Positions 1 through 60,800 of a stretch of 64,000 nucleotides of DNA are shown piece by piece. The notes beneath the pieces were generated by a model, which worked only from the letters and a program-made list of their open reading frames with translations, searched no databases and was not told where the DNA came from. The stretch is from the NCBI GenBank assembly GCA_039819095.1, contig JBCBSP010000003.1, positions 169,835 through 233,834 on the forward strand. The letters run 5' to 3'. Within the stretch, counting starts at the first letter, position 1. Each line of letters opens with the position of its first letter. Source of the stretch: Pseudomonadota bacterium (GTDB taxonomy: Bacteria > Pseudomonadota > Alphaproteobacteria > Caulobacterales > Maricaulaceae). The position numbers were made by a program, and so were the translations under genes.

Positions 1-156
1 AAGGAAGTCGGGCTGCAAGTCCCGCTCGTGGTCCGCCTGGAAGGCACCAATGTCGAGCTCGGCAAAACGATCATTAATGAGAGCGGGCTGAATGTGATTT
101 CCGCCGATGATCTCGATGATGCCGCGAAGAAGATTACGAAGGCGGTTGAGGGGTAG
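1..156 (+). CDS. sucC: succinate--CoA ligase (ADP-forming) beta subunit, C-terminal fragment (5' end outside window)
   Basis: Frame 1 reads [51 protein letters not shown] then TAG at 154-156. This is a recognisable SucC C-terminal tail, and sucD/sucA/sucB follow downstream. Confidence 0.85.
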
Positions 157-237
157 GCAACATCGCCGTAATACACAGATGGTTGCAAGGCACACAATAA
201 GGCGCCAACCTCACATAAAGGATGTACAACTTGATAG

Positions 238-663
238 GTGACGCCAATGGGGCCTCAGATTGTAGCAGCAGTCGTGGGCGCTAGCGCTGCAATTCTTGCT
301 CAAATTGTTACAATAATCGCACAATATATATTAAAAAATAGAGAAATTTCACTAGAAAAATCTAAGATAAAATTGGCTGCATATCAAAATTACGAGACAC
401 GTCGACTTGACGCATTCACTTATGTTTTCGATCAATTGTACTCACTTCTTGATGATGACAAAAGTGCATTAGAAGTGTATAGAGATATTCGTCCGCACTG
501 GATGTTCTTTAGCCCAGATACACAAGACCTAGTACGCAAAGCCATCCGCGAAAAGAACCAGCATGGCGAGGGCGCGAGTGATAAAGTTGGTGAATCCTTC
601 TTAATTGCCTTCTCTGCGCTGAAAAATGAAAATAAGGAGTGTATGAGGTTTTACTATGACTGA
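238..663 (+). CDS. hypothetical membrane-anchored protein, 141 aa, no family recognised
   Basis: Long ORF in visibly AT-rich DNA, where stop codons should be frequent. It has an N-terminal hydrophobic helix (GPQIVAAVVGASAAILAQIVTIIAQYIL) followed by a charged helical region. The track start is GTG 238; ATG 247 preceded by AGGTGA is an alternative. Its stop overlaps the next ORF's start (ATGACTGA). Confidence 0.6.
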   Translation: MTPMGPQIVAAVVGASAAILAQIVTIIAQYILKNREISLEKSKIKLAAYQNYETRRLDAFTYVFDQLYSLLDDDKSALEVYRDIRPHWMFFSPDTQDLVRKAIREKNQHGEGASDKVGESFLIAFSALKNENKECMRFYYD

Positions 664-1513
664 GCTACCACACCACCTTAAACAAGACATAGATGAGGGC
701 ACACTGAGCATTGAGCACTCACCTAGCGCAATTAAGCCTCACTTGGCAACTGTTAGGCTTACTATGGAACCCCGGTCTATTCCTAGTGAAATCATTAAAC
801 ACCTCCCTATTGCTGAGAAGTTATTCGAAAAATTTCGTGTTATGTTTGATACATCGACTATAGCTATGCCACCAGGCACCGAGATGGATGGGCCTGTAGA
901 TAGGTTTATACGGTACAAACTTGACGAAGATCAGCTCGTGACTTTTAAAGGAGGCTATTCTGCATTTGGCGGTGAAGACTTTATTTCCATTGGAATTTTG
1001 GGGTTCGGGCGAGAGAATATCATCGCCATGGTTTACGGAACCACGAGGCAGGCTGAGCATCTTTGCAAACTTTTAGCAGAAGAGTTGTGGCGCATTTGTG
1101 GTACAGAGCGGAAATGGAGTGAGCTTAGTGATTGCGTTCAATTTGCCTCTCACATAACCGAAACAGAGGTCGATTTTGGATTTAGTTTCGACCGGTTTTT
1201 CGCTCCAGGATTTAACTTGTTCTTACGCGAGGATATCGAAGGGCGCGACGGGCTCGGGAGACACATTGGCATTATGGGGCAACGAAATCCTGCTTCACGC
1301 GAAGAACTTATCGTACGTACAGCCTACAAGCATATAGAAATGGATATAGGCCTCTTCGACGGAGTGTCCGGAGATTCGGAACAATCCTTCTTGAGAATAC
1401 GCCCCAGCACCCGAAAAGATATCAATCGGAGCCTAATGTCAGTCTCGAGTGAGTTGCCCTTTGATCAGCACGTTCAGATGGTGGAACGACTAATCTCTAA
1501 ACTTAAGGATTGA
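656..1513 (+). CDS. hypothetical soluble protein, 285 aa, no family or catalytic motif recognised
   Basis: An 858-nt ORF in AT-rich DNA with only one short competing antisense ORF (821-1060). ATG 656 overlaps the upstream stop by 8 nt, suggesting translational coupling. AAGGAG lies at about 634-639. Confidence 0.6.
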   Translation: MTELPHHLKQDIDEGTLSIEHSPSAIKPHLATVRLTMEPRSIPSEIIKHLPIAEKLFEKFRVMFDTSTIAMPPGTEMDGPVDRFIRYKLDEDQLVTFKGGYSAFGGEDFISIGILGFGRENIIAMVYGTTRQAEHLCKLLAEELWRICGTERKWSELSDCVQFASHITETEVDFGFSFDRFFAPGFNLFLREDIEGRDGLGRHIGIMGQRNPASREELIVRTAYKHIEMDIGLFDGVSGDSEQSFLRIRPSTRKDINRSLMSVSSELPFDQHVQMVERLISKLKD

Positions 1514-1553
1514 ATTTGGACACGAGGCTCAGAGAATAAGCGCAGGTTGTGTG

Positions 1554-1572
1554 CTACACATAACTCGTGTAG
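1554..1572 (+). promoter_or_regulatory. perfect 6-bp inverted repeat CTACAC-N7-GTGTAG, 10 nt upstream of the vapB start (possible antitoxin operator or RNA hairpin)
   Basis: Read directly: ctacac(1554-1559) ataactc gtgtag(1567-1572). Function is inferred from position only. Confidence 0.25.
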
Positions 1573-1581
1573 GCTCTGTAC

Positions 1582-1857
1582 ATGGCTAAGAATATCACCC
1601 TCGCGATTGATGAAGACCTGCTGGACAAGGCGCGCGTGCTCGCCGCGATGCACCGCACGACGGTCAACGCCATGGTGCGGGAGTTTCTTGAGCAAAAGGT
1701 CGGTGAAGAATCCAAGGATGGGCTCCGCGCCGACTGGGATGCGCTTTTCGAGAAAGTGGACCGTGAAGCCACGGACCGCCGTAAACTCATGAAAGGCGGC
1801 CTGCCGCCTCGTGAAGCTCTCTATGATGAGATGATGCGTGGCCGCAGCGTTCTTTGA
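1582..1857 (+). CDS. vapB: ribbon-helix-helix type II antitoxin (VapB-like)
   Basis: The N-terminus MAKNITLAIDEDLLDKARVLAAMHRTTVNAMVREFLEQ has the typical RHH/CopG-type antitoxin pattern. It is 91 aa and overlaps the downstream PIN gene by 20 nt. Confidence 0.75.
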   Translation: MAKNITLAIDEDLLDKARVLAAMHRTTVNAMVREFLEQKVGEESKDGLRADWDALFEKVDREATDRRKLMKGGLPPREALYDEMMRGRSVL

Positions 1858-2257
1858 CAGTAATATCGTCGTCTACGCCGTCGACCCGCGCGATGACAGC
1901 GATGGTAAGCGAAGCGTCGCACGAGAGCTGATACGGGAACGCGATTGCGTTCTCTCCACTCAGGTCTTGATGGAAGTCTTCAATGTTCTCGTCCGGTTGG
2001 ACCTGATGGATGCAGCACCCGCCAAGGGCTATGTCCGCCGCCTTTGCATGTTCCCGATCATCACAATTGAGCGTGGAGACGTGCTTGAAGCCCTGGAGCT
2101 TCGAGACCTCTATCAGATCCACCACTATGACGGCCTCATCCTGCGCGCTGCGGCGAAGAGTGGCGTGTCGATGCTATACACCGAAGACCTCAATCACGGC
2201 CAGATGTACGGCCCGGTGCGGGTCTGCAATCCGTTCATCGAAGACTTCCTCGCCTAG
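1838..2257 (+). CDS. vapC: PIN-domain ribonuclease toxin (VapC-like)
   Basis: GTG start. The N-terminus AAAFFDSNIVVYAVD carries the first conserved acidic residue of PIN domains. Size is 139 aa, a later DGLILRAA...TEDLNHG segment is present, and the gene pairs with an upstream RHH antitoxin. Confidence 0.8.
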   Translation: MAAAFFDSNIVVYAVDPRDDSDGKRSVARELIRERDCVLSTQVLMEVFNVLVRLDLMDAAPAKGYVRRLCMFPIITIERGDVLEALELRDLYQIHHYDGLILRAAAKSGVSMLYTEDLNHGQMYGPVRVCNPFIEDFLA

Positions 2258-2275
2258 ACAAAAGGTTCCCCGCCC

Positions 2276-3184
2276 ATGTCCGTACTCGTCAACAAAGACA
2301 CCAAAGTCATCGTCCAGGGTCTGACCGGCAAGACCGGCACCTTCCACACCGAACAGGCGCTGGCCTATTACGGCACCAAAATGGTCGCCGGGGTTCACCC
2401 GAAAAAGGGCGGGGAGAGCTGGACCAGCGGCATGGACGGCGCGGCTTCTCTGCCGATCTACGCCAGTGTCGCCGAAGCCAAGGACGCGACCGGGGCAAGC
2501 GCTTCGGTGGTCTATGTGCCGCCGGCCGGCGCGGGCGCAGCCATCATCGAAGCGATCGATGCGGAGATGGACCTGATCGTGTGCATCACCGAAGGCATTC
2601 CGGTGCTCGACATGGTCAAGGTCAAGGCGCGCCTGGACCGATCCAGCTCCCGCCTGCTCGGACCGAACTGCCCCGGCGTGCTGACCCCGGAAGAGTGCAA
2701 GATCGGCATCATGCCCGGCTCGATCTTCCAGAAGGGTTCGGTCGGCGTGGTCTCGCGCTCCGGCACGCTGACCTATGAGGCGGTGTTCCAGACCAGCCAG
2801 GAGGGCCTCGGCCAGACCACGGCGGTCGGAATTGGCGGCGACCCGGTCAAGGGCACCGAGTTCATCGACGTGCTGGAGATGTTCCTCGCCGACGAGGAGA
2901 CGAAATCGATCATCATGATCGGCGAAATCGGCGGCTCGGCCGAGGAAGAAGCCGCACAATTCCTCAAGGATGAAGCCGCCAGGGGTCGCAAGAAGCCCAC
3001 GGTCGGCTTCATCGCCGGGCGCACGGCGCCTCCGGGCCGCACCATGGGCCATGCCGGCGCGATCGTATCCGGCGGCAAGGGCGGCGCGGATGACAAGATC
3101 GAGGCCATGAAATCGGCCGGCATCACGGTGTCCGACAGCCCGGCCCGGCTCGGCGTGACGCTGAGCGAGGTGCTGAAGGGTTAA
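2276..3184 (+). CDS. sucD: succinate--CoA ligase alpha subunit
   Basis: [46 protein letters not shown]..., SRSGTLTYE and GHAGAI motifs are typical SucD. Confidence 0.97.
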
Positions 3185-3212: not shown

Positions 3213-3241
3213 GACCCCGCCTCACCGGCGGGGTCTTCTGC
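3213..3241 (+). terminator. stem-loop downstream of sucD (possible attenuator or weak intrinsic terminator)
   Basis: GACCCCGCC(3213-3221) tcacc GGCGGGGTC(3227-3235) forms a perfect 9-bp stem followed by TTCTGCTATT. The T-tract is weak. Confidence 0.45.
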
Positions 3242-3329: not shown

Positions 3330-6300
3330 ATGTCCGTGTATCACATGCGCGCGCCGTCGCGCGTCGATCCCAAGCGCCCGCTTCGGGCGGAACTGGCTGA
3401 AATGGCTGAAGAACGCTCCTCCTCGAACCAGACCTTTCTGGAAACCTCGTTTCTGTATGGCGGCAACGCCGTCTATCTCGAAGACATGGCCGCGCGCTAC
3501 GCGCAGGATCCCGGCTCTGTTCCGGACTCCTGGCGCGCCTTCTTCGAAACCATGGGCGATGCCGGCGCCGACGCCGTGCGGGCCGCAGAGGGGCCGGGCT
3601 GGAGGCGTGATGACTGGCCGCGCCGCGCCAATGGCGACATGGTCGCCGCGCTTGGCGATATCGGCCCGGAGCTTGCCGGCGTCCCGGACGCGGTGGCCGA
3701 GAAAATGCCGGCCGGCGCCAGCCAGGATGAAGTCCAGCGCGCTGTGCGCGATTCGATCGCGGCGATCATGCTCATCCGCGCCTATCGCATGCGCGGACAT
3801 CTGGCGGCCGATCTCGACCCGCTCGGCCTGACCGATTTCGGCGAGCAGCGCGAGCTGCAGCCGTCACGCTTCGGCTTTGAGGAGGCCGATCTCGACCGGC
3901 AGATCTTCATCAACGGCTATCTCGGGATGGAAAGCGCCACAGTGCGCGAAATCCTGGAGATCCTGAAGCGCACCTATTGCTCCACTTTCGCGGTGGAGTT
4001 CATGCATATCTCCAATCCGGAGGAGAAATCCTGGCTGCAGGAACGCATTGAGGGTCCGGACAAGGAGATCGCCTTCTCAAAAGAAGGCAAGCGCGCCATT
4101 CTGAAGAAGCTGGTCGAGGCGGAAAGCTTCGAGAACTTCCTGCATAAGCGCTATCCCGGCACCAAGCGCTTCGGCATTGACGGCGGCGAGGCCATGGTCC
4201 CGGCGCTGGAGCAGATCATCAAGCGCGGCGGAGCGCTGGGCGTCACCGATATCGTGCTCGGCATGCCGCACCGCGGTCGGCTTAACGTGCTCGCGGCAGT
4301 GATGGGCAAGCCCTATCATGTCATCTTCCACGAGTTTCAGGGCGGCAGCTCGATCGGCGATGACGAGTACGCATCCGGCGATGTGAAATACCATCTCGGC
4401 TCATCGTCCGACCGCGCCTTTGACGGCAATAACGTGCATCTGTCGCTGACCGCGAACCCGTCCCACCTGGAAGCGGTCAATCCGGTCGTCCTGGGCAAGG
4501 CGCGCGCGAAGCAGACCAAGCTGCGCCGCGATCTCGGTCCGGAGGAAAACACCGGCGCCATGGTGCTGCCTCTGCTGCTGCATGGTGATGCGGCTTTCGC
4601 CGGTCAGGGCGTGGTCGCCGAGTGTCTCGGGCTTTCCGGCCTGAAGGGTCACCGCACAGGCGGGGCGATCCACTTCATCGTCAACAATCAGATCGGCTTC
4701 ACGACCAATCCGAAGGATTCCCGTTCCTCGCCCTATCCCAGCGATGTCGCCCTGATGGTTCAGGCGCCGATCTTCCATGTGAACGGCGATGACCCTGAAG
4801 CGGTGGTGTTTGCCGCCAAGGTCGCTACGGAATACCGCCAGAAGTTCGGCAAGGACGTCGTCATCGACATGTTCTGCTATCGCCGCTTCGGCCACAATGA
4901 GGGCGACGACCCGTCCTTCACCCAGCCCATCATGTACAAGGCGATCGCCGGGCGCGACACGACGCTGACGCTTTACGCGGGCCGGCTCCTGTCCGAAGGC
5001 GTGGTGGAAGAGAGCGAGCTGGATGGCTGGCGCTCGGAGTTTGACGACTTCCTCGACGCCGAGTTCGAAGCCGGCAAGGCGTATAAGGCCAACACGGTGG
5101 ACTGGCTGGACGGTGTCTGGTCAGGGCTCGGCCTGCCGGAGGAAGACAAGCTGCGCGGCCAGACCGGCGTGCCGGAAGACCGGCTGAAAGAGATCGGCAT
5201 GGCGATGACCGAGATTCCCGAGGGGATTGCGGTCCACAAGACGCTGAAGCGGGTTCTGGGCAATCGTCGCAAGATGATCGAGACGGGCGAGAATCTCGAC
5301 TGGTCGACCGCCGAGCATCTGGCGTTCGGCACCCTGCTGCGCGAGGGATTCCCGGTGCGCCTATCCGGTCAGGATTCCGGGCGCGGCACCTTCTCCCAGC
5401 GCCATTCGCACATCATTGATCAGGAAACCGAGGAGCGTCATACCCCGCTCAATCATCTCAGCGAGGATCAGGCCCGCTATGAGGTGATCGATTCCATGCT
5501 GTCGGAAGAAGCCGTGCTCGGCTTTGAGCATGGCTACTCGCTGTCGGCGCCGAACACGCTGGTGATGTGGGAAGCCCAGTTCGGCGACTTTGTGAACGGC
5601 GCCCAGATCATCATCGACCAGTTCATCTCCTCATCCGAGCGCAAATGGCTGCGCATGTCCGGCCTGGTCATGCTCCTGCCGCATGGCTTTGAAGGTCAGG
5701 GTCCGGAGCACTCCTCAGCACGGCTTGAGCGCTTCCTGCAGCAATGCGCCGAAGACAATATGCAGGTGGCCAACTGCTCAACCCCGGCGAACTACTACCA
5801 TATTCTTCGCCGCCAGATTCACCGGCCTTTCCGCAAACCGCTTATCCTGATGACGCCCAAAAGCCTTTTACGTCACAAGCGCTGCGTCTCGCCGCTGTTT
5901 GAGTTCGCCGAAGGCAGCACCTTCCACCGCGTGCTGTGGGATGATGCCGACATGAAGGCCCGCGGCGACCGTGACGATGTGGCCGCCGGGCGCACCACGA
6001 CCCGGCTCGTTGAAGACGAGAAGATCCGCCGTGTCGTGATGTGTTCCGGCAAGGTGTATTACGACCTGCTTGAAGCGCGCGAGGAACGCGGCGTTGATGA
6101 CGTTTATCTTCTGCGCGTGGAACAGTACTATCCCTTCCCGGCGCTCTCCCTGATCCATGAGCTTCAGCGCTTCAAATCCGCCGACATGGTCTGGTGTCAG
6201 GAGGAGCCGAAGAATATGGGCCCGTGGAGCTTCGTCGAGCCTTATATCGAGTTTTGCCTGGACAAGGCGGAGACCGACAAAGACCGTCCGCGCTATGTCG

Positions 6301-6392
6301 GGCGCCCGCCCGCCGCTTCTCCGGCGACCGGGGTTCTGAAAAAGCATATCGCACAGCAGAACGCGCTTATTGACGACGCTCTGAAAGCCTAG
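3330..6392 (+). CDS. sucA: 2-oxoglutarate dehydrogenase E1 component
   Basis: Full-length similarity pattern to SucA ([21 protein letters not shown]..., [28 protein letters not shown]). The true start is probably ATG 3402 (MAEERSSS...) rather than the ORF-track start. Confidence 0.95.
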
Positions 6393-6438: not shown

Positions 6439-7941
<1,503 letters not shown>

Positions 7942-8078: not shown

Positions 8079-10853
8079 TCAGTGCGCCTGCCCCCACGTT
8101 TCGGCGGCTTTGGCGTCCACGACCAGCGGCACGGTGAGGCTCACGGCAGGAAGATGCGCTTCGCTCATCACCTCGCGAACGATTTCGATCAGGCGTACAG
8201 CCTCGTCTTCAGGCGCCTCGAAGACCAGCTCGTCATGGACCTGAAGCAGCATGCGTGACTTCAGCCCCGCCTTGGCGAGCGCGTCTTCCATGCGCAGCAT
8301 GGCGCGGCGAATGATGTCGGCGGCCGCCCCCTGGATCGGCGCGTTGATCGCCTGGCGTTCCGCGAACTGGCGCACGGAGGGGTTCTTGTCCTTGATGCCG
8401 GGCAGATGGATGCGCCGACCGAACAGGGTGGAGACCGCGCCGCGTTCTTTGGCTTCGGCCTTCATCGCGTCCATATAATCGGCGATGCCCGGGAATTTCT
8501 TGAAATAGCTTTCGATATACGCCTTCGCCTCATCGCGTCCGATGCCGAGATTATTGGCCAGGCCGAAGGCGGAAATGCCATAAATAATGCCAAAATTGAT
8601 CGCCTTGGCGTTCCGCCGCGTCGCCGGGTCCATTTCATCAAGCGGCACCCCGAACATTTCCGACGCCGTCATGGCGTGAATATCCTGACCCTGGCGGAAG
8701 GCCTCTTTCAGCGCTTCCACATCGGCGATATGGGCGAGAAGCCGCAACTCGATCTGGGAATAATCCGCCGCGACGACGCGATGGCCGGGTTCGGCGGTGA
8801 AGGCCTCGCGGATCTTGCGGCCCTCTTCAGTGCGGATCGGAATGTTCTGCAGGTTCGGTTCAGAGCTGGACAGCCGACCGGTTGAGGTCGCAGCCAGAGA
8901 GAAGCTGGTATGAACCCGGCCGGTATTCGGGTTGATCGCCTCTTTCAGCGCATCCGAATAGGTCGATTTCAGCTTTGAGAATTGCCGCCAGGTCAAAAGC
9001 GCCTGCGGCAGCTCATGGCCCTGGGCGGCGAGCTCTTCGAGCACCGCCGCATCGGTCGACCAGGCGCCGGACTTTGTCTTCTTGCCGCCCGGCAGACCCA
9101 TCTCGCCGAACAGGATTTCGCCGATCTGTTTGGGACTTCCAAGATTGAAGGGGTGGCCAGCGGTCCTGTGCGCGATCTCTTCGGATTCGGCCATTTTCTG
9201 CGCGAAGTGTGAGGACAGGCGCGAAAGCTGGGCCACATCGACCTTGACGCCAGCCAGCTCCATGCGCGCCAGCGCGCCCGCCATGCCGCGTTCCAGCGTC
9301 TCATAGACGGTGAGAAGTCCCTTCTTCGCCAGGCCCGGCTTCAACAGCTCCCAGAGACGCAGCGTGATATCGGCGTCTTCCGCAGCGTAGGCGGTGGCGG
9401 TCGCCAGATCGATCTCGCTGAAGCGTTTCTGTTTCTTGCCGGTTCCGCACACCTCCTTGAACGGGATGCAGCGATGACCGAGATGCCTTTCGGCCAGCTC
9501 ATCCATGCCGTGCCCGTGCAGCCCCGCCTCCTGCACATAGGAGATGAGCATGGTGTCGTCGTACGGAGTCGCCTCAATGCCATAGCGGGCCAGCACCGCC
9601 AGATCATATTTGAAATTCTGGCCGACTTTCAGAACAGCTGGATCCTCAAGCAGACGCTTCAAGGCGCCGAGCGCGGCGGCTTCTTCAATCTGCTCAGGAC
9701 GCCCGCCGCCATCGGCGAGATCGCCGCCCTCATGGCCGAGGGGGATATAGCAGGCCTCGCCCGGCGCGACGGCGAGCGATACGCCGACGAGCCGCGAGGC
9801 GGTGGCGGACAGCGCATCGGTTTCGGTATCGACTGCAACGACGCGCATCGTCCTGGCCCGGTCCATCCAGCGCTGAAGCGCATCCATCGTCTGGACCGTC
9901 TCGTATTTCGACCGGTCGATCGGCGCAGTGGCGTCGCCTGTGGCGTCCGCCGGCCCGGCGCCGAGACCTTCTTCCACGCGGCGGGTGAGCGTGCGGAACT
10001 CCATCGATTTTAAAAAGCTCAGCAGCGTGTCCGCATCGGGTTCATCCGTCCCGAACGCATCGAGCTCCGCGTCAACCGCGACATCCGTCTTCAGCGTGAC
10101 CAACTCACGTGACAGCCGCGCGTCATCGGCGTGCTCGGTGAGTTTTTCGCGGCGCTTGGGCTGCTTGATCTCGCCGGCGCGCTCCAAGAGCGCGTCCAGA
10201 TCGCCATACTCGGTGATCAGCTGAGCCGCCGTTTTCACCCCGATGCCCGGCACGCCCGGGACATTATCGACCGAGTCTCCGGCGAGCGCCTGAACGTCGA
10301 TGACCCGATCCGGGCCCACGCCAAACTTTTCGATCACCTCATCATGGCTGATGCGTTTGGCCTTCATCGGGTCGAGCATTGTGACCTGATCGGACACAAG
10401 CTGCATCAGATCCTTGTCCGAAGACGCCACGGTCACCCGCGCACCGGCTTCTGCGGCCTGCCGGGCATAGGTCGCAATCAGATCATCGGCCTCATAACCC
10501 TCCATCTCGATACAGGGCAGCTGAAACGCGTTGGTGGCGTCGCGAATGAGCGGAAATTGCGGAACGAGATCTTCCGGCGCGGGCGGGCGATTGGCCTTGT
10601 ACTGATCATAGATCGCGTTGCGGAAACTCTCGCCGGAATAGTCGAAAATCACCGCCAGATGCGTCGGTTGATCCTCGCCCTTCAGGTCCTCCAGAAGCTT
10701 CCACAGCATGTTGCAGAAGCCCTGCACCGCTCCGACCGGCGTGCCGTCCGAACGGGTGAGCGGCGGCAGGGCGTGATAGGCGCGGAAGATATAACCCGAC
10801 CCGTCCACCAGATAGACGTGGCTGGAAGCGTCGACGGGACGGGAAACGGCCAT
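8079..10853 (-). CDS. polA: DNA polymerase I
   Basis: 924 aa. It has a 5'-3' exonuclease N-terminus (YLVDGSGYIFRAYHA), a 3'-5' exonuclease region and polymerase motifs (DYSQIELR, QVHDELVFE). Confidence 0.97.
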   Translation of the reverse strand: MAVSRPVDASSHVYLVDGSGYIFRAYHALPPLTRSDGTPVGAVQGFCNMLWKLLEDLKGEDQPTHLAVIFDYSGESFRNAIYDQYKANRPPAPEDLVPQFPLIRDATNAFQLPCIEMEGYEADDLIATYARQAAEAGARVTVASSDKDLMQLVSDQVTMLDPMKAKRISHDEVIEKFGVGPDRVIDVQALAGDSVDNVPGVPGIGVKTAAQLITEYGDLDALLERAGEIKQPKRREKLTEHADDARLSRELVTLKTDVAVDAELDAFGTDEPDADTLLSFLKSMEFRTLTRRVEEGLGAGPADATGDATAPIDRSKYETVQTMDALQRWMDRARTMRVVAVDTETDALSATASRLVGVSLAVAPGEACYIPLGHEGGDLADGGGRPEQIEEAAALGALKRLLEDPAVLKVGQNFKYDLAVLARYGIEATPYDDTMLISYVQEAGLHGHGMDELAERHLGHRCIPFKEVCGTGKKQKRFSEIDLATATAYAAEDADITLRLWELLKPGLAKKGLLTVYETLERGMAGALARMELAGVKVDVAQLSRLSSHFAQKMAESEEIAHRTAGHPFNLGSPKQIGEILFGEMGLPGGKKTKSGAWSTDAAVLEELAAQGHELPQALLTWRQFSKLKSTYSDALKEAINPNTGRVHTSFSLAATSTGRLSSSEPNLQNIPIRTEEGRKIREAFTAEPGHRVVAADYSQIELRLLAHIADVEALKEAFRQGQDIHAMTASEMFGVPLDEMDPATRRNAKAINFGIIYGISAFGLANNLGIGRDEAKAYIESYFKKFPGIADYMDAMKAEAKERGAVSTLFGRRIHLPGIKDKNPSVRQFAERQAINAPIQGAAADIIRRAMLRMEDALAKAGLKSRMLLQVHDELVFEAPEDEAVRLIEIVREVMSEAHLPAVSLTVPLVVDAKAAETWGQAH

Positions 10854-57899: not shown

Positions 57900-60800
57900 T
57901 CACCATCCCATCCGCACACCTGCGCGGGCGCCGACCTTGCCGGTCTGATCGGCCCAGCCCACGGCAAGATTGGCTGACAAGCGATTGCTGACGCGGCGTG
58001 CGGCTGAAAGCGCGAGGGCGTTTGATCCATCGTAATGGCCCCAGTTAGCGCTGAAGGCCACCGTTTCATTCTGCTGCAACCAAGTCGAACCCGACAGCGC
58101 ATTGGCGATGGCGATGCCGTCCATGTTTTGCGCGATCTGGTTGGCGTTGCGGGTCGACAGCACGCTGAGCTGCTCCACGCTCACCTGCATCGCTGCAAAG
58201 TCGTTCTCCAACGTTTCAATCCGACCGGTGTTGGACGCGATGGCCACTTCGTTGGTTCTGATGCGCGTGTCGAAGCCCATAATCGCCGCGGTGTTGGACG
58301 CGATATTGTCGGTATTCGTCGCGATATTCACCGTATTACGATCAATGTCAGTCCGGTTGGTCGCAATCGCAGCGGTGTTGTTGTCGATATCAGCGCGGTT
58401 GGCGTCGATATCAGACCGGTTGTCGGCGATATCAGACTCGTTCTGAGTGATCCGGTCTTCGTGATCATCGACTTGGGTCTCAAGATCGATAAGGCGTTGA
58501 CCGTTACCCGCGACACCGGCCTGCAGCAGGGCGATATCGGCAGCATTCACCGCCACCCCATTCGCGATGGTCGAGATGCCTGCGGTGTTGTTTGCGATAT
58601 TGACCGTGTTCGTCGCGATGCTCGTCGAGTTGTTCGCAATGTTGGTCGTATTGGTCGCGATCGTCGTGGTGTTGTTGGCGATGTTGGTTGTGTTGGTCGC
58701 GACGCCGGCGGTGTTGTTCGCGATGTTCGTGGTGTTCGTCGCGATATTGCCGGTGTTGGTTGCAATGTTGGTTGTGTTGGTCGCGATATTTGTCGTGTTC
58801 GTCGCGATGTTCGTGGTGTTTACCCCAATCGCCGCCGTGTTCGACGCGATATCAGCCAGCGCCGCTCCGCCGTCTGACGCGATATTGCCGTCCGCATCCA
58901 CCGTCACGAACCCGTCCACGGCGCCTTGAGCCGCAGTTGAGGCCGCTGAGGTCAAGCCTGGAAGGGTGTAGGTGTTCGAGCTCGTTCCGATCACGATCTG
59001 ATCGGCGCGCGACGCGACCGCCCCGACACCGATCGCCATGGAATTGTCGAAGGCCGCGCTCGCACCCTGGCCGAAGGCCGAAGCCCCCGCACCGCGGGCG
59101 ACCGCGCCTTGACCGATGGCGGTGGAAGCTTCACCGGAGGCTTCCGCATCCTCACCAACCGCCGTGGTGTCATCCTCGGTGGCTTCGGCGTTTTCACCCA
59201 GCGCCGTTGACGACGCGCCTGTCGCCATCGTGTTGGCGCCGAAGGCCGCTGAATCCGCGCCCGTGGCCATGGCCAGAAGGCCGACCGCCGTGGAGCCGGA
59301 GGCCACCGCGCCATCACCGATTGCAACCGCACCGGTATTTGTGGCGGACGCATTGCGCCCGATGGCCACCGCGCCTTCCTCGGTCGCCGAGGCCGCTTCA
59401 CCAATGGCGACGGCGTCATCACCCGTGGCCGAGGCCACAGCCCCCGTGGAGTTCACGTCGAGATAGACGGACCCTGGGGTGACTGAGCCGAGCGCTGCGA
59501 TGTCAGCGGTGTTCTGGGTCACCTGGGTCTGCAGCGCCCCGCCGTCAGAGGCGAGATTGCCGTCCGCGTCGGTGGTGACCAGACCCGTGACCGCGCCTTG
59601 CGCCGCCGTAGACGCGGCGGAGGTGATGCCAGCGATGGTGACGGCCTCAGTAACTGTTCCCAGAACGATCTGGTTGGCGCGGGTGGTGGACGCGTTCGCG
59701 CCCAGCGCGATTGAGTTGTCAAACGCGGTGCTCGCGTCATCCCCGATGGCGATGGAATTCGTTCCGTTCGCCGTGGCGCCGGTTCCAACCGCAAGCGCGC
59801 CGACCGATTCAGCCCGTGATCCGTCACCCAGCGCCATCGAGCTGGCCGCGACTGCGGCCGCATTCTGACCCAGGGCCGTAGCGGCTACAGCTGTTGCGCT
59901 TGCGCCCTGACCGATCGCCGTGGCGTCATTACCGCTCGCGGTGGCGCCCTGGCCGACGGCGGTTGCTTGGGTGTTGGACGCTGTCGCGCCTTCACCAACC
60001 GCCGTCGACTCGTCAGAGTCTGCGGTGGCGTTCTCACCCAACGCGCTTGATTGCGCGCCTGTCGCCATCGTGTTGGCGCCGAAGGCCGCTGAATCCGCGC
60101 CTGTGGCCATGGCGAGCAGGCCGACCGCGGTGGATCCGGACGCTACTGCGCCGTCACCGATCGCAACCGCGCCCGCATTGGTGGCGGACGCGTTACGCCC
60201 GATTGCGACCGCGCCTTCCTCTGTGGCCGAAGCTGCTTCGCCGATGGCGATCGCGTCATCGCCCGTAGCGCTTGCCGCCGCACCGGTGGAGTTCACATCG
60301 AGATAGATGGAGCCGCCGCCGCCCGCGCCAAGCGCGGCGATATCAGCGGTGTTCTGGTTCACCTGCGTCTGCAGCGCCCCGCCGTCAGAGGCGAGATTGC
60401 CGTCCGCGTCGGTGGTGACCAGGCCCGTGACTGCACCCTGCGCCGCCGTAGAGGCTGCGGAGGTGATGCCCGCGATAGTGACGGTCTCGCTCGCCGTGCC
60501 CAGAACGATCTGGTTGGCGCGGGTGGTCGCAGCACCGGTACCCAGAGCGATGGAGTTTTCAAATCCGGCATTGGACGATTCACCGATGGCGATGGCCCGC
60601 TGAGCGCTGGCTGTGCTGTCATCGCCCATCGCGATGGCGTCATCCGCCGTTGCTCGCGCGCCGTCGCCATCAATGTCCGGATCACCGCCGATGGCGATGG
60701 CGGAGATTCCCGAAGCGACCGCGCCGTCTCCGACGGCGAAGCTGTCCGCGCCGGATGCAATGGCCCCGAAGCCATTTCCATCCGAATCCCCGCCGAGCGC

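Follow-up and report, generated by a model that had tools for sequence, protein, structure and literature searches.

Organization of the sucC-sucD locus

The current work concerns a 64-kb window (64,000 nucleotides (nt), being the whole stretch of DNA that was analysed) on contig JBCBSP010000003.1 of an Oceanicaulis-like (Maricaulaceae-type) metagenome-assembled genome (MAG), and in particular the interval between sucC and sucD, which encode the beta and alpha subunits of succinyl-CoA synthetase. This interval contains four co-directional open reading frames (ORFs), namely ORF1, ORF2 and a candidate toxin-antitoxin (TA) pair designated vapB and vapC (Table 1). The junction is probably an accessory-gene slot which accommodates two independently acquired modules, the ORF1-ORF2 cassette and vapBC. 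What is directly observed is the anatomy of the locus, that the two modules are distributed separately and recur at this position in distant hosts, and that the slot is variable. An original prediction, made from the sequence, had placed four co-directional ORFs between a sucC end at position 156 and a sucD start at position 2276, with 18 nt separating the vapC stop codon from the sucD ATG, and these coordinates hold upon re-examination.

Table 1. Features identified at the sucC-sucD junction and downstream of it (positions refer to the window).
Feature	Position	Strand	Remarks
sucC 3' end (beta subunit of succinyl-CoA synthetase), left-hand border of the slot	1-156	+	Stop codon TAG at 154-156; Pfam Ligase_CoA, 2.2e-06
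sucC-ORF1 spacer, 90 nt	157-246	+	CACATAA-like half-sites, exact copy at 212-218
ORF1, 138 amino acids (aa), cassette gene 1	247-663 (alternative start 238)	+	N-terminal hydrophobic segment
ORF2, 285 aa, cassette gene 2	656-1513	+	Start overlaps the ORF1 stop (ATGACTGA)
Imperfect palindrome CGCAGGTTGTGTG-CTA-CACATAACTCGTG	1541-1569		Precedes the vapB ATG by 12 nt
vapB, 91 aa, candidate antitoxin of the ribbon-helix-helix (RHH) type	1582-1857	+	Pfam DUF6364 at cut-off
vapC, 139 aa, candidate PIN-domain toxin	1838-2257	+	GTG start; 20-nt overlap with vapB
vapC-sucD spacer, 18 nt	2258-2275	+	AAAGG as sucD ribosome-binding site
sucD (alpha subunit of succinyl-CoA synthetase), right-hand border of the slot	2276-3184	+	Pfam CoA_binding and Ligase_CoA
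sucA	3330-6392		Downstream of sucD; ORF call
sucB	6439-7941		Downstream of sucD; ORF call

The last 51 aa of SucC, encoded at the left border, share 76-90% identity with the C-termini of the alphaproteobacterial SucC proteins compared. The SucD protein of the window, for which a look-up returned no exact match on record, shows 91% identity to its counterpart in Oceanicaulis alexandrii, which suggests a place for the MAG in or near the Maricaulaceae. The source MAG has the locus tags AAFX09_05445 and AAFX09_05450 on a 419-kb contig. A Shine-Dalgarno-like AGGTGA motif is located 6 nt ahead of the ATG at position 247, which is the likely start codon of ORF1, because the resulting length of 138 aa matches that of its homologue at locus L162 (loci from other genomes and contigs are indicated by L numbers). 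An assembly artefact was ruled out by two independent sources: a Logan contig (L001, run SRR22824284) carries a near-identical insert, with ≈99% identity for ORF1 and VapC and 100% identity for ORF2 and VapB, and the cultured isolate Jiella endophytica (L181) displays the same gene order as the insert of the window.

The insert is divided into two compartments by its guanine-plus-cytosine (GC) content, which amounts to 0.40 for ORF1, 0.46 for ORF2 and 0.58 for both vapB and vapC, as compared to 0.65 for sucD and 0.648 for the 64-kb window. The corresponding GC content at third codon positions (GC3) is 0.35 for ORF1, 0.67-0.71 for vapBC and 0.79-0.85 for sucD and sucA, and the first 2 kb represent the lowest-GC stretch of the 64 kb. 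This low GC content, together with the empty site in the closest named relatives (see below), agrees with the earlier assertion that the inserted genes are foreign or accessory. The sole other clear compositional outlier in the window is found at positions 58001-59000, where GC dips to 0.577 with an AT skew of -0.27.

No integrase or transposase domain was detected among the proteins of the window by means of Pfam, NCBIfam and PADLOC searches, and no direct or inverted repeats beyond chance-length matches flank the insert; these results concur with the original prediction, which had remarked on the lack of an integrase, a transposase or obvious flanking direct repeats. As to its further statement that no convincing intrinsic terminator precedes sucD, a scan of the + strand ahead of this gene returned a single weak terminator-like site, located within ORF1.

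The spacer between sucC and ORF1 is ≈65-80 nt longer than its equivalents in L181 (11 nt) and L162 (26 nt). CACATAA occurs six times in exact form over the 64 kb, with three of these occurrences in the first 1.6 kb, the mean for shuffled sequences being 1.5 per whole window. The region from 157 to 246 may partly be a remnant, perhaps a decayed operator copy. Downstream of the suc genes, a 924-aa ORF on the - strand (8079-10853) converges on the end of sucB, and its translation reads like that of DNA polymerase I; if this candidate assignment is correct, lpdA does not directly follow sucB in the window. ARAGORN found no transfer RNA or transfer-messenger RNA genes in the 64-kb window, and no Rfam family was found at gathering score.

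Variability of the junction among Alphaproteobacteria

The 80 species that match best in SucD, all of them alphaproteobacteria, were compared as to the distance from the sucC stop codon to the sucD start codon, as read at their sucD loci. The junction is empty in 50 of these species, with a sucC-sucD distance of -1 to 59 nt; they include Oceanicaulis alexandrii and Woodsholea maritima (3 nt), which are the closest named relatives, as well as Alkalicaulis (59 nt). The other 30 species have an occupied junction, represented by 29 loci with a gap of 236-2344 nt and by L033, a locus that starts inside the occupied junction. The cargo belongs to more than ten unrelated families, among which Cupin_2 was encountered in ten loci and DUF1579 in seven, and further comprises a Sulfotransfer_3 sulfotransferase (L080), an extra PIN gene (L086), several secreted or lipoprotein-like families and small membrane proteins. 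None of the scanned cargo ORFs of these other loci contains an integrase or transposase domain. At vapBC-bearing loci, the variable part is the interval from sucC to vapB, which ranges from 60 to 1425 nt.

The sucC-sucD junction is a small variable slot that is reused across alphaproteobacterial lineages. The notion that the two genes are normally contiguous applies to the 50 species with an empty junction, closest named relatives included, but not to the 30 others, and with something present at the junction in 30 of 80 sampled species the contention that this is an unusual site for accessory genes is not supported. Comparison of the junction across relatives, which had been proposed as a check on the insertion, gave a mixed outcome: an empty site of 3 nt is present in Oceanicaulis and Woodsholea, but vapBC occupies the same position in several lineages. 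For the vapBC half, this goes some way towards the presence of homologous genes in close relatives and most alphaproteobacteria that would point to an ancestral arrangement. What makes a reused slot within an operon unusual is that new genes are reported to integrate rarely within operons (Oliveira et al. 2017, PMC5635113).

A pair formed by a Cupin_2 gene (123 aa) and a DUF1579 gene (≈165 aa) lies between sucC and sucD in the Mesorhizobium loci L016, L020, L021, L027 and L029, and DUF1579 is present at this position without Cupin_2 in Phyllobacterium calauticae (L068) and Rhizobium multihospitium (L072). In a Hyphomonadaceae MAG (L039, contig JALEGE010000126.1), the interval between sucC and vapB encodes, at positions 4520-5242, a protein with TIR_2 and Rho_N domains (Pfam 1.3e-23), which constitutes a defence-type cargo.

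A vapBC clade located directly upstream of sucD

The deduced product of vapC matches the Pfam PIN domain (PF01850) with an E value of 6.4e-11 and a score of 43.4 bits against a cut-off of 23.6, and this match upholds the vapBC label given previously, with vapB as a borderline candidate of the RHH type. VapB matches DUF6364 (5e-06, 27.3 bits, exactly at cut-off), the FitA-like RHH, VapB_antitoxin and RHH_1 models all remaining below their cut-offs; its conserved N-terminus (KNITLAIDEDLLDKARVLAA) and the position of its gene fit an RHH antitoxin. VapC of the window retains the acidic residues D7, E46, D98 and D117, which, as judged from their motif positions, are predicted to form the PIN catalytic quartet. 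Three of these residues (D7, E46 and D117) are invariant or at least 90% conserved in 56 members of the VapC clade, and the C-terminal motif NPFIEDFLA is clade-specific. A protein search with VapC retrieved 57 relatives, many of them labelled Maricaulaceae or Hyphomonadaceae and including Glycocaulis and Oceanicaulis MAGs, and VapB of the window is 50-59% identical to the sucD-adjacent VapB proteins of L002, L077, L039 and L181.

Homologues of vapBC are present at the junction in 8 of the 80 surveyed species, and homologues of both genes were identified between sucC and sucD at L002, L039, L077, L028, L033 and L027. At L002, the closest relative with respect to SucD (88% identity), vapBC is the sole cargo of the junction. 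Besides the window, the clade covers three named lineages, i.e., Brevundimonas, Hyphomonadaceae and Mesorhizobium/Aquibium/Jiella. In a profile scan of metagenome contigs, all VapC matches of at least 46% identity for which downstream sequence is available (10 loci) are situated directly before sucD, as are two matches of 41% (L092 and L117); the remaining 67 matches (35-43%) have neither sucC nor sucD nearby. The spacer from vapC to the sucD ATG measures 9-27 nt at 16 of 18 clade loci. The vapBC clade sits directly upstream of sucD wherever its context was seen.

A palindrome with the consensus CACGGGTTATGTG-nnn-CACATAACCCGTG is located a few bases ahead of vapB at most of the suc-embedded loci. 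The palindrome of the window (1541-1569) is a probable VapB(C) operator, putatively overlapping the vapBC promoter. Taken together, vapBC of the window may be regarded as a type II TA module that is intact and autoregulated and has its operator and promoter inside the suc operon, the promoter activity, operator binding and toxicity being predicted from the sequence.

Decayed versions of the module were noted in Mesorhizobium (L030, positions 5770-5985, and L031, positions 5735-5986), where a remnant of the vapC C-terminus accompanies an intact-looking vapB, with a Cupin_2 gene upstream. L117 (contig Ga0247833_1000010) carries, between positions 3239 and 5629, vapBC and sucD followed by a second RHH/PIN-like pair (4885-5250 and 5204-5629), which lies upstream of a candidate sucA-like reading frame; no sucC is present within 3.2 kb upstream, a gene for an 809-aa membrane protein being found there instead. 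The suc cluster of the L117 lineage thus seems, from its gene content, to harbour TA modules at two junctions.

The identity matrices of VapC and SucD are uncorrelated (Mantel rho 0.06, p 0.34, 14 loci). L092 and L117 share 72-74% identity in VapC with L088 and L091, from which they differ considerably in SucD (only 68-70% identity), and L077 and L027 have SucD proteins which are 90% identical and VapC proteins which are only 39% identical. Co-divergence is seen among close loci, as for the pair L077/L090 (99% for SucD, 94% for VapC) and the set L087/L088/L091 (90-94% for SucD, 81-83% for VapC). The history of vapBC looks as if the module had been gained or replaced more than once at a single address, passed on vertically between these events and lost to decay now and then.

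A rather unlikely alternative holds that the vapBC-sucD arrangement is ancestral to much of the Alphaproteobacteria and was inherited vertically with many losses, such that only ORF1-ORF2 was inserted recently. The occurrence of vapBC at exactly the same place in several lineages, with a conserved operator and spacer, the co-divergence of the close loci just mentioned and the decaying copies in Mesorhizobium would all be expected under such a scenario. However, it is difficult to reconcile with the lack of an overall correlation between VapC and SucD and the strong discordance of L092 and L117, with the different VapBC lineages carried by the related hosts of L077 and L027, with the empty sites of the closest named relatives and with a GC3 of vapBC that falls below that of sucD and sucA.

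The ORF1-ORF2 cassette

Neither ORF1 nor ORF2 matches an entry in Pfam, NCBIfam, PADLOC or PHROG, and 71 members of the ORF2 family are similarly without Pfam, NCBIfam, PADLOC or PDB sequence matches; a PDB sequence-profile match of ORF2 to ferritin (E 0.06) was discarded as noise. Likewise, no known anti-phage defence system was matched in PADLOC-DB by the window proteins or by these 71 family members. A word-index search of 5.8 billion proteins recovered only two relatives of ORF2, and an exhaustive search of 1.84 billion yielded ≈160 cluster representatives at E<=1e-3, 106 of which at E<=1e-10, nearly all of them unnamed singletons. The earlier designation of both upstream ORFs as orphans therefore needs to be amended in that ORF2 belongs to a family of ≈160 cluster representatives, but remains apt insofar as this family is uncharacterised and ORF1 has no family.

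The AlphaFold model of ORF2, based on an alignment of 71 sequences, attained a predicted local distance difference test score (pLDDT) of 94 and a predicted template-modelling score (pTM) of 0.89, and is composed of two halves with a beta-alpha-beta4-alpha topology. An internal duplication is not supported, hhalign having revealed no sequence similarity between the halves. Foldseek returned no PDB structure at E<=1e-3; among viral models (BFVD) its matches, with giant-virus proteins that carry the annotation TATA-box-binding protein (TBP), reach E 2e-5 and a template-modelling score (TMq) of 0.42 and are too weak to assign a function to ORF2. As far as can be judged from this confident model, ORF2 represents a new family without a structural relative in the PDB.

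In a word-index search ORF1 matched only itself, and its homologues were identified via synteny beside ORF2 homologues. A partner gene of 133-151 aa is positioned directly upstream of the ORF2 homologue, overlapping or abutting it, in all six closest relatives; ORF1 is 27-36% identical to the equally placed partners in L162, L181, L170, L167 and L180, and the six ORF1-type partners share 26-36% mutual identity. ORF1 is hydrophobic at residues 6-24, followed by a hydrophilic helical remainder, and the Kyte-Doolittle maximum over 19 residues reaches 1.5-2.3 at the N-terminus of all six ORF1-type partners. From this profile ORF1 is probably membrane-anchored at its N-terminus. More distant relatives of ORF2 mostly have an upstream neighbour as well, of 147-219 aa.

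The six most closely related ORF2 genes with genomic context are found at two junctions, sucC-sucD (the window, L162 and L181) and cobS-cobT (L167 in complete form, L170 and L180). At L162-L164 the cassette lies between the 3' end of sucC and the 5' end of sucD without vapBC; ORF2 of L162 is 48% identical to that of the window, and the SucD N-terminus of its host only 65%. At L181 (Jiella) the order is sucC, ORF1 homologue, ORF2 homologue, a 386-nt AT-rich spacer, palindrome, vapB, vapC and sucD; ORF2 is here 33% identical to that of the window and the most divergent of the six. At L167 the cassette is tightly fitted into the cobS-cobT junction: the stop codon of cobS and the start of ORF1 overlap (TGATG), and 1 nt lies between the ORF2 stop codon and the cobT ATG. 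At L170 and L180 the cassette starts 9 and 7 nt after cobS, respectively, the cobS side being the only one seen. In a neighbour-joining tree the six junction ORF2s group together with 76% bootstrap support, and the window and L162 do so with 97%. Outside this six-member clade, members of the ORF2 family reside in ordinary neighbourhoods or in ones resembling mobile genetic elements (MGEs), with DUF932, FtsK/SpoIIIE and Hypoth_Ymh neighbours. The measured cassette copies have a GC content of 0.40-0.47 in hosts of 0.60-0.67, and their mutual identity is 32-48%. The restriction of the cassette to these sites is one drawn from six contexts.

L162 and L167 both originate from Logan run SRR14610204, meaning that one metagenome holds a suc-located and a cob-located copy, with ORF2 proteins that are 43% identical. 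The upstream gene (sucC or cobS) ends in GGR-TGA in five of the six contexts (L162, positions 197-202; L181, positions 235-240; L180, positions 38-43; L167; L170), which could be a coincidence or part of a target.

A bolder and distinctly unlikely proposal is that ORF1-ORF2 represents a new type of mobile cassette which specifically colonises junctions between co-transcribed subunit genes of housekeeping enzymes, with no known recombinase or nuclease and with the new-fold ORF2 protein as the targeting factor; the sucD-anchored VapBC clade would in that case have adopted such a lifestyle independently, as a second lineage. A stricter version, in which ORF1-ORF2 is an active homing element, one of its proteins recognising sucC-sucD and cobS-cobT and promoting copying into empty alleles, appears quite improbable. 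This version would account for a monophyletic set of six cassettes at two junctions in hosts with divergent flanks, for the existence of occupied and empty alleles without repeats or an integrase, for cassettes that are still AT-rich despite deep divergence, for the GGR-TGA end of five of the six upstream genes and for a model weakly resembling the DNA-binding TBP fold. Against it, no nuclease or recombinase domain emerged from sequence or fold searches, ORF1 looks membrane-anchored, which is odd for the partner of a DNA enzyme, and the TBP-like match is weak and absent from the PDB search. Moreover, the case is confined to six contexts, and no relatives occur on phages, plasmids or viral contigs: tblastn with ORF2 against plasmids and phages gave no match, and a scan of viral contigs contained no ORF2 relatives.

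Two modules in one slot

The original prediction had interpreted the four genes as a single insertion of 2.1 kb, and this is not supported, given the two GC compartments, the presence of vapBC alone at L002 and that of ORF1-ORF2 alone at L162. One four-gene island, inserted once as a unit into a contiguous junction, could explain why the genes are co-directional and closely packed without a separating terminator and why the same order recurs in Jiella endophytica. Nevertheless, the VapC protein of Jiella is 64-71% identical to those of L077 (Aquibium) and of the metagenomic locus L088 and only 51% identical to that of the window, and because of this and of an ORF2 identity of only 33% the co-occurrences in the window and in Jiella look independent. 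The cassette clade is furthermore found at cobS-cobT without vapBC, and vapBC is found without the cassette at loci other than L002. The separate occurrences of the modules largely refute the single island, which is considered very improbable.

That the inserted genes are accessories to succinyl-CoA synthetase or to the tricarboxylic acid (TCA) cycle, such as regulators or assembly factors kept for co-expression, would fit their orientation and probable co-transcription with the suc genes and the recurrence of their positions, but is disfavoured as exceedingly improbable, given that the same cassette clade resides at the unrelated cobS-cobT junction, that most species are without any insert and the slot cargo is heterogeneous, that the composition of the cassette is foreign, and that PIN/RHH pairs are typical of TA modules.

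For the slot with two independently acquired modules, the following course of events is proposed. VapBC would supply a palindromic operator of its own and probably also a promoter; its end lies 18 nt ahead of sucD. The suc transcript would read through both modules, for which the lack of a visible terminator, the tight packing and the retained sucD ribosome-binding site argue, and the vapB promoter would provide a second, TA-autoregulated input to sucD-sucA-sucB. Because vapBC is predicted to carry a promoter and ends this close to sucD, sucD-sucA-sucB would be transcribable both by read-through and from the vapB promoter, and the earlier suggestion that sucD expression depends on read-through or on an internal promoter would thus be implied by the layout. 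The cassette, which has no detectable promoter, would most likely depend on transcription of the host operon.

With regard to acquisition, modules may arrive and be swapped in a recombinase-free manner, through double homologous recombination within the conserved flanks formed by the suc genes; for hotspots that lack a recombinase, turnover by way of double recombination in the core genes on either side is an established model (PMC5635113). A 32-nt block at the 5' end of sucD is shared without a mismatch by the window, L002, L077 and L181, and would permit such recombination among some hosts. An addictive VapBC would then penalise deletion of the junction, allowing neighbouring cargo to persist. 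A low-confidence guess, and the weakest step of the scheme, is to see in ORF1-ORF2 a two-component module of the selfish or defence type, composed of a soluble and a membrane-anchored partner.

A number of observations weigh against this interpretation. In a sliding-window comparison, the 5' end of sucD at the discordant loci showed no mosaic resembling a donor, so that flank recombination remains a proposal. Exact runs shared by the flanks of L162 or L117 with the window measure 10-12 nt, and this identity seems too low for homologous recombination. Passive recombination, moreover, does not explain a cassette found in just two junctions, and the same four-gene order in Jiella leaves room for a functional link between the modules. 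The vapB promoter is predicted from position and conservation only; promoter-like matches in a consensus scan were not more frequent than in shuffled sequences, and as neither promoter nor terminator scans rose above chance they are uninformative in either direction. The fixed address of vapBC applies to loci with visible context, a set that does not include the VapC matches from Glycocaulis and Oceanicaulis MAGs, and the missing correlation between VapC and SucD could partly arise from saturation and from a narrow range of SucD identities. The proportion of 30 occupied species in 80 is a rough figure because the sample consists of the best SucD matches and is rich in Hyphomicrobiales. Finally, the window opens inside sucC, and the left flank seen is limited to the 3' end of this gene (1-156).

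Significance and comparison with known systems

Foreign genes are tolerated in the gap between the subunit genes of an essential TCA cycle enzyme, a gap that is put to repeated use in different alphaproteobacterial lineages, and one TA lineage has apparently made the sucC-sucD junction its permanent home. If this is true, intra-operon junctions of highly conserved genes constitute a neglected habitat for modules of the selfish or defence type, in which host transcription would be guaranteed and conserved flanks may aid spread, and the expression of sucD-sucA-sucB would be coupled to a TA operator. The ORF2 family represents a good target for functional work. A literature search produced no account of a suc-embedded vapBC or of genes between sucC and sucD or between cobS and cobT.

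The MGE-free hotspots of bacterial genomes (Oliveira et al. 2017, PMC5635113) resemble the suc slot in their variable cargo between the same core genes, in the lack of an integrase or transposase and in the presence of defence-type genes. The suc slot differs from these hotspots in being located inside an operon, between two subunit genes of one enzyme, in its very small size (0.2-2.3 kb) and in being shared across orders and not only within species; the elevated recombination of hotspot flanks, in addition, was not seen at the suc slot in the mosaic test of the sucD 5' end. Free-standing homing endonuclease genes of T4-like phages (intronless homing; PMC2988022) offer a second parallel, limited to placement: these small foreign genes, too, are inserted among conserved genes that are transcribed together, occupied alleles exist beside empty ones, and repeats or an integrase are lacking. 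In contrast to these, ORF1 and ORF2 contain no endonuclease domain or fold (GIY-YIG, HNH, LAGLIDADG and similar) according to Pfam, NCBIfam and Foldseek searches, and the cassette resides in bacterial chromosomes and consists of two genes, one of which encodes a probable membrane-anchored partner.

With chromosomal type II VapBC systems, the module of the window shares a small RHH-like gene upstream of an overlapping PIN gene, the acidic PIN residues and a palindrome before the antitoxin gene. It is set apart from them by the fixed address of its clade directly upstream of sucD with a short conserved spacer, and the novelty of this vapBC is that address. TA modules stabilise neighbouring DNA in the cassette arrays of superintegrons and in the integrative and conjugative element (ICE) SXT. 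Unlike these, the suc slot has no attC sites or integrase, holds one or two modules and lies inside a housekeeping operon; it has in common with them a TA pair beside variable, promoter-poor cargo, and a comparable stabilisation of the slot by vapBC is plausible.

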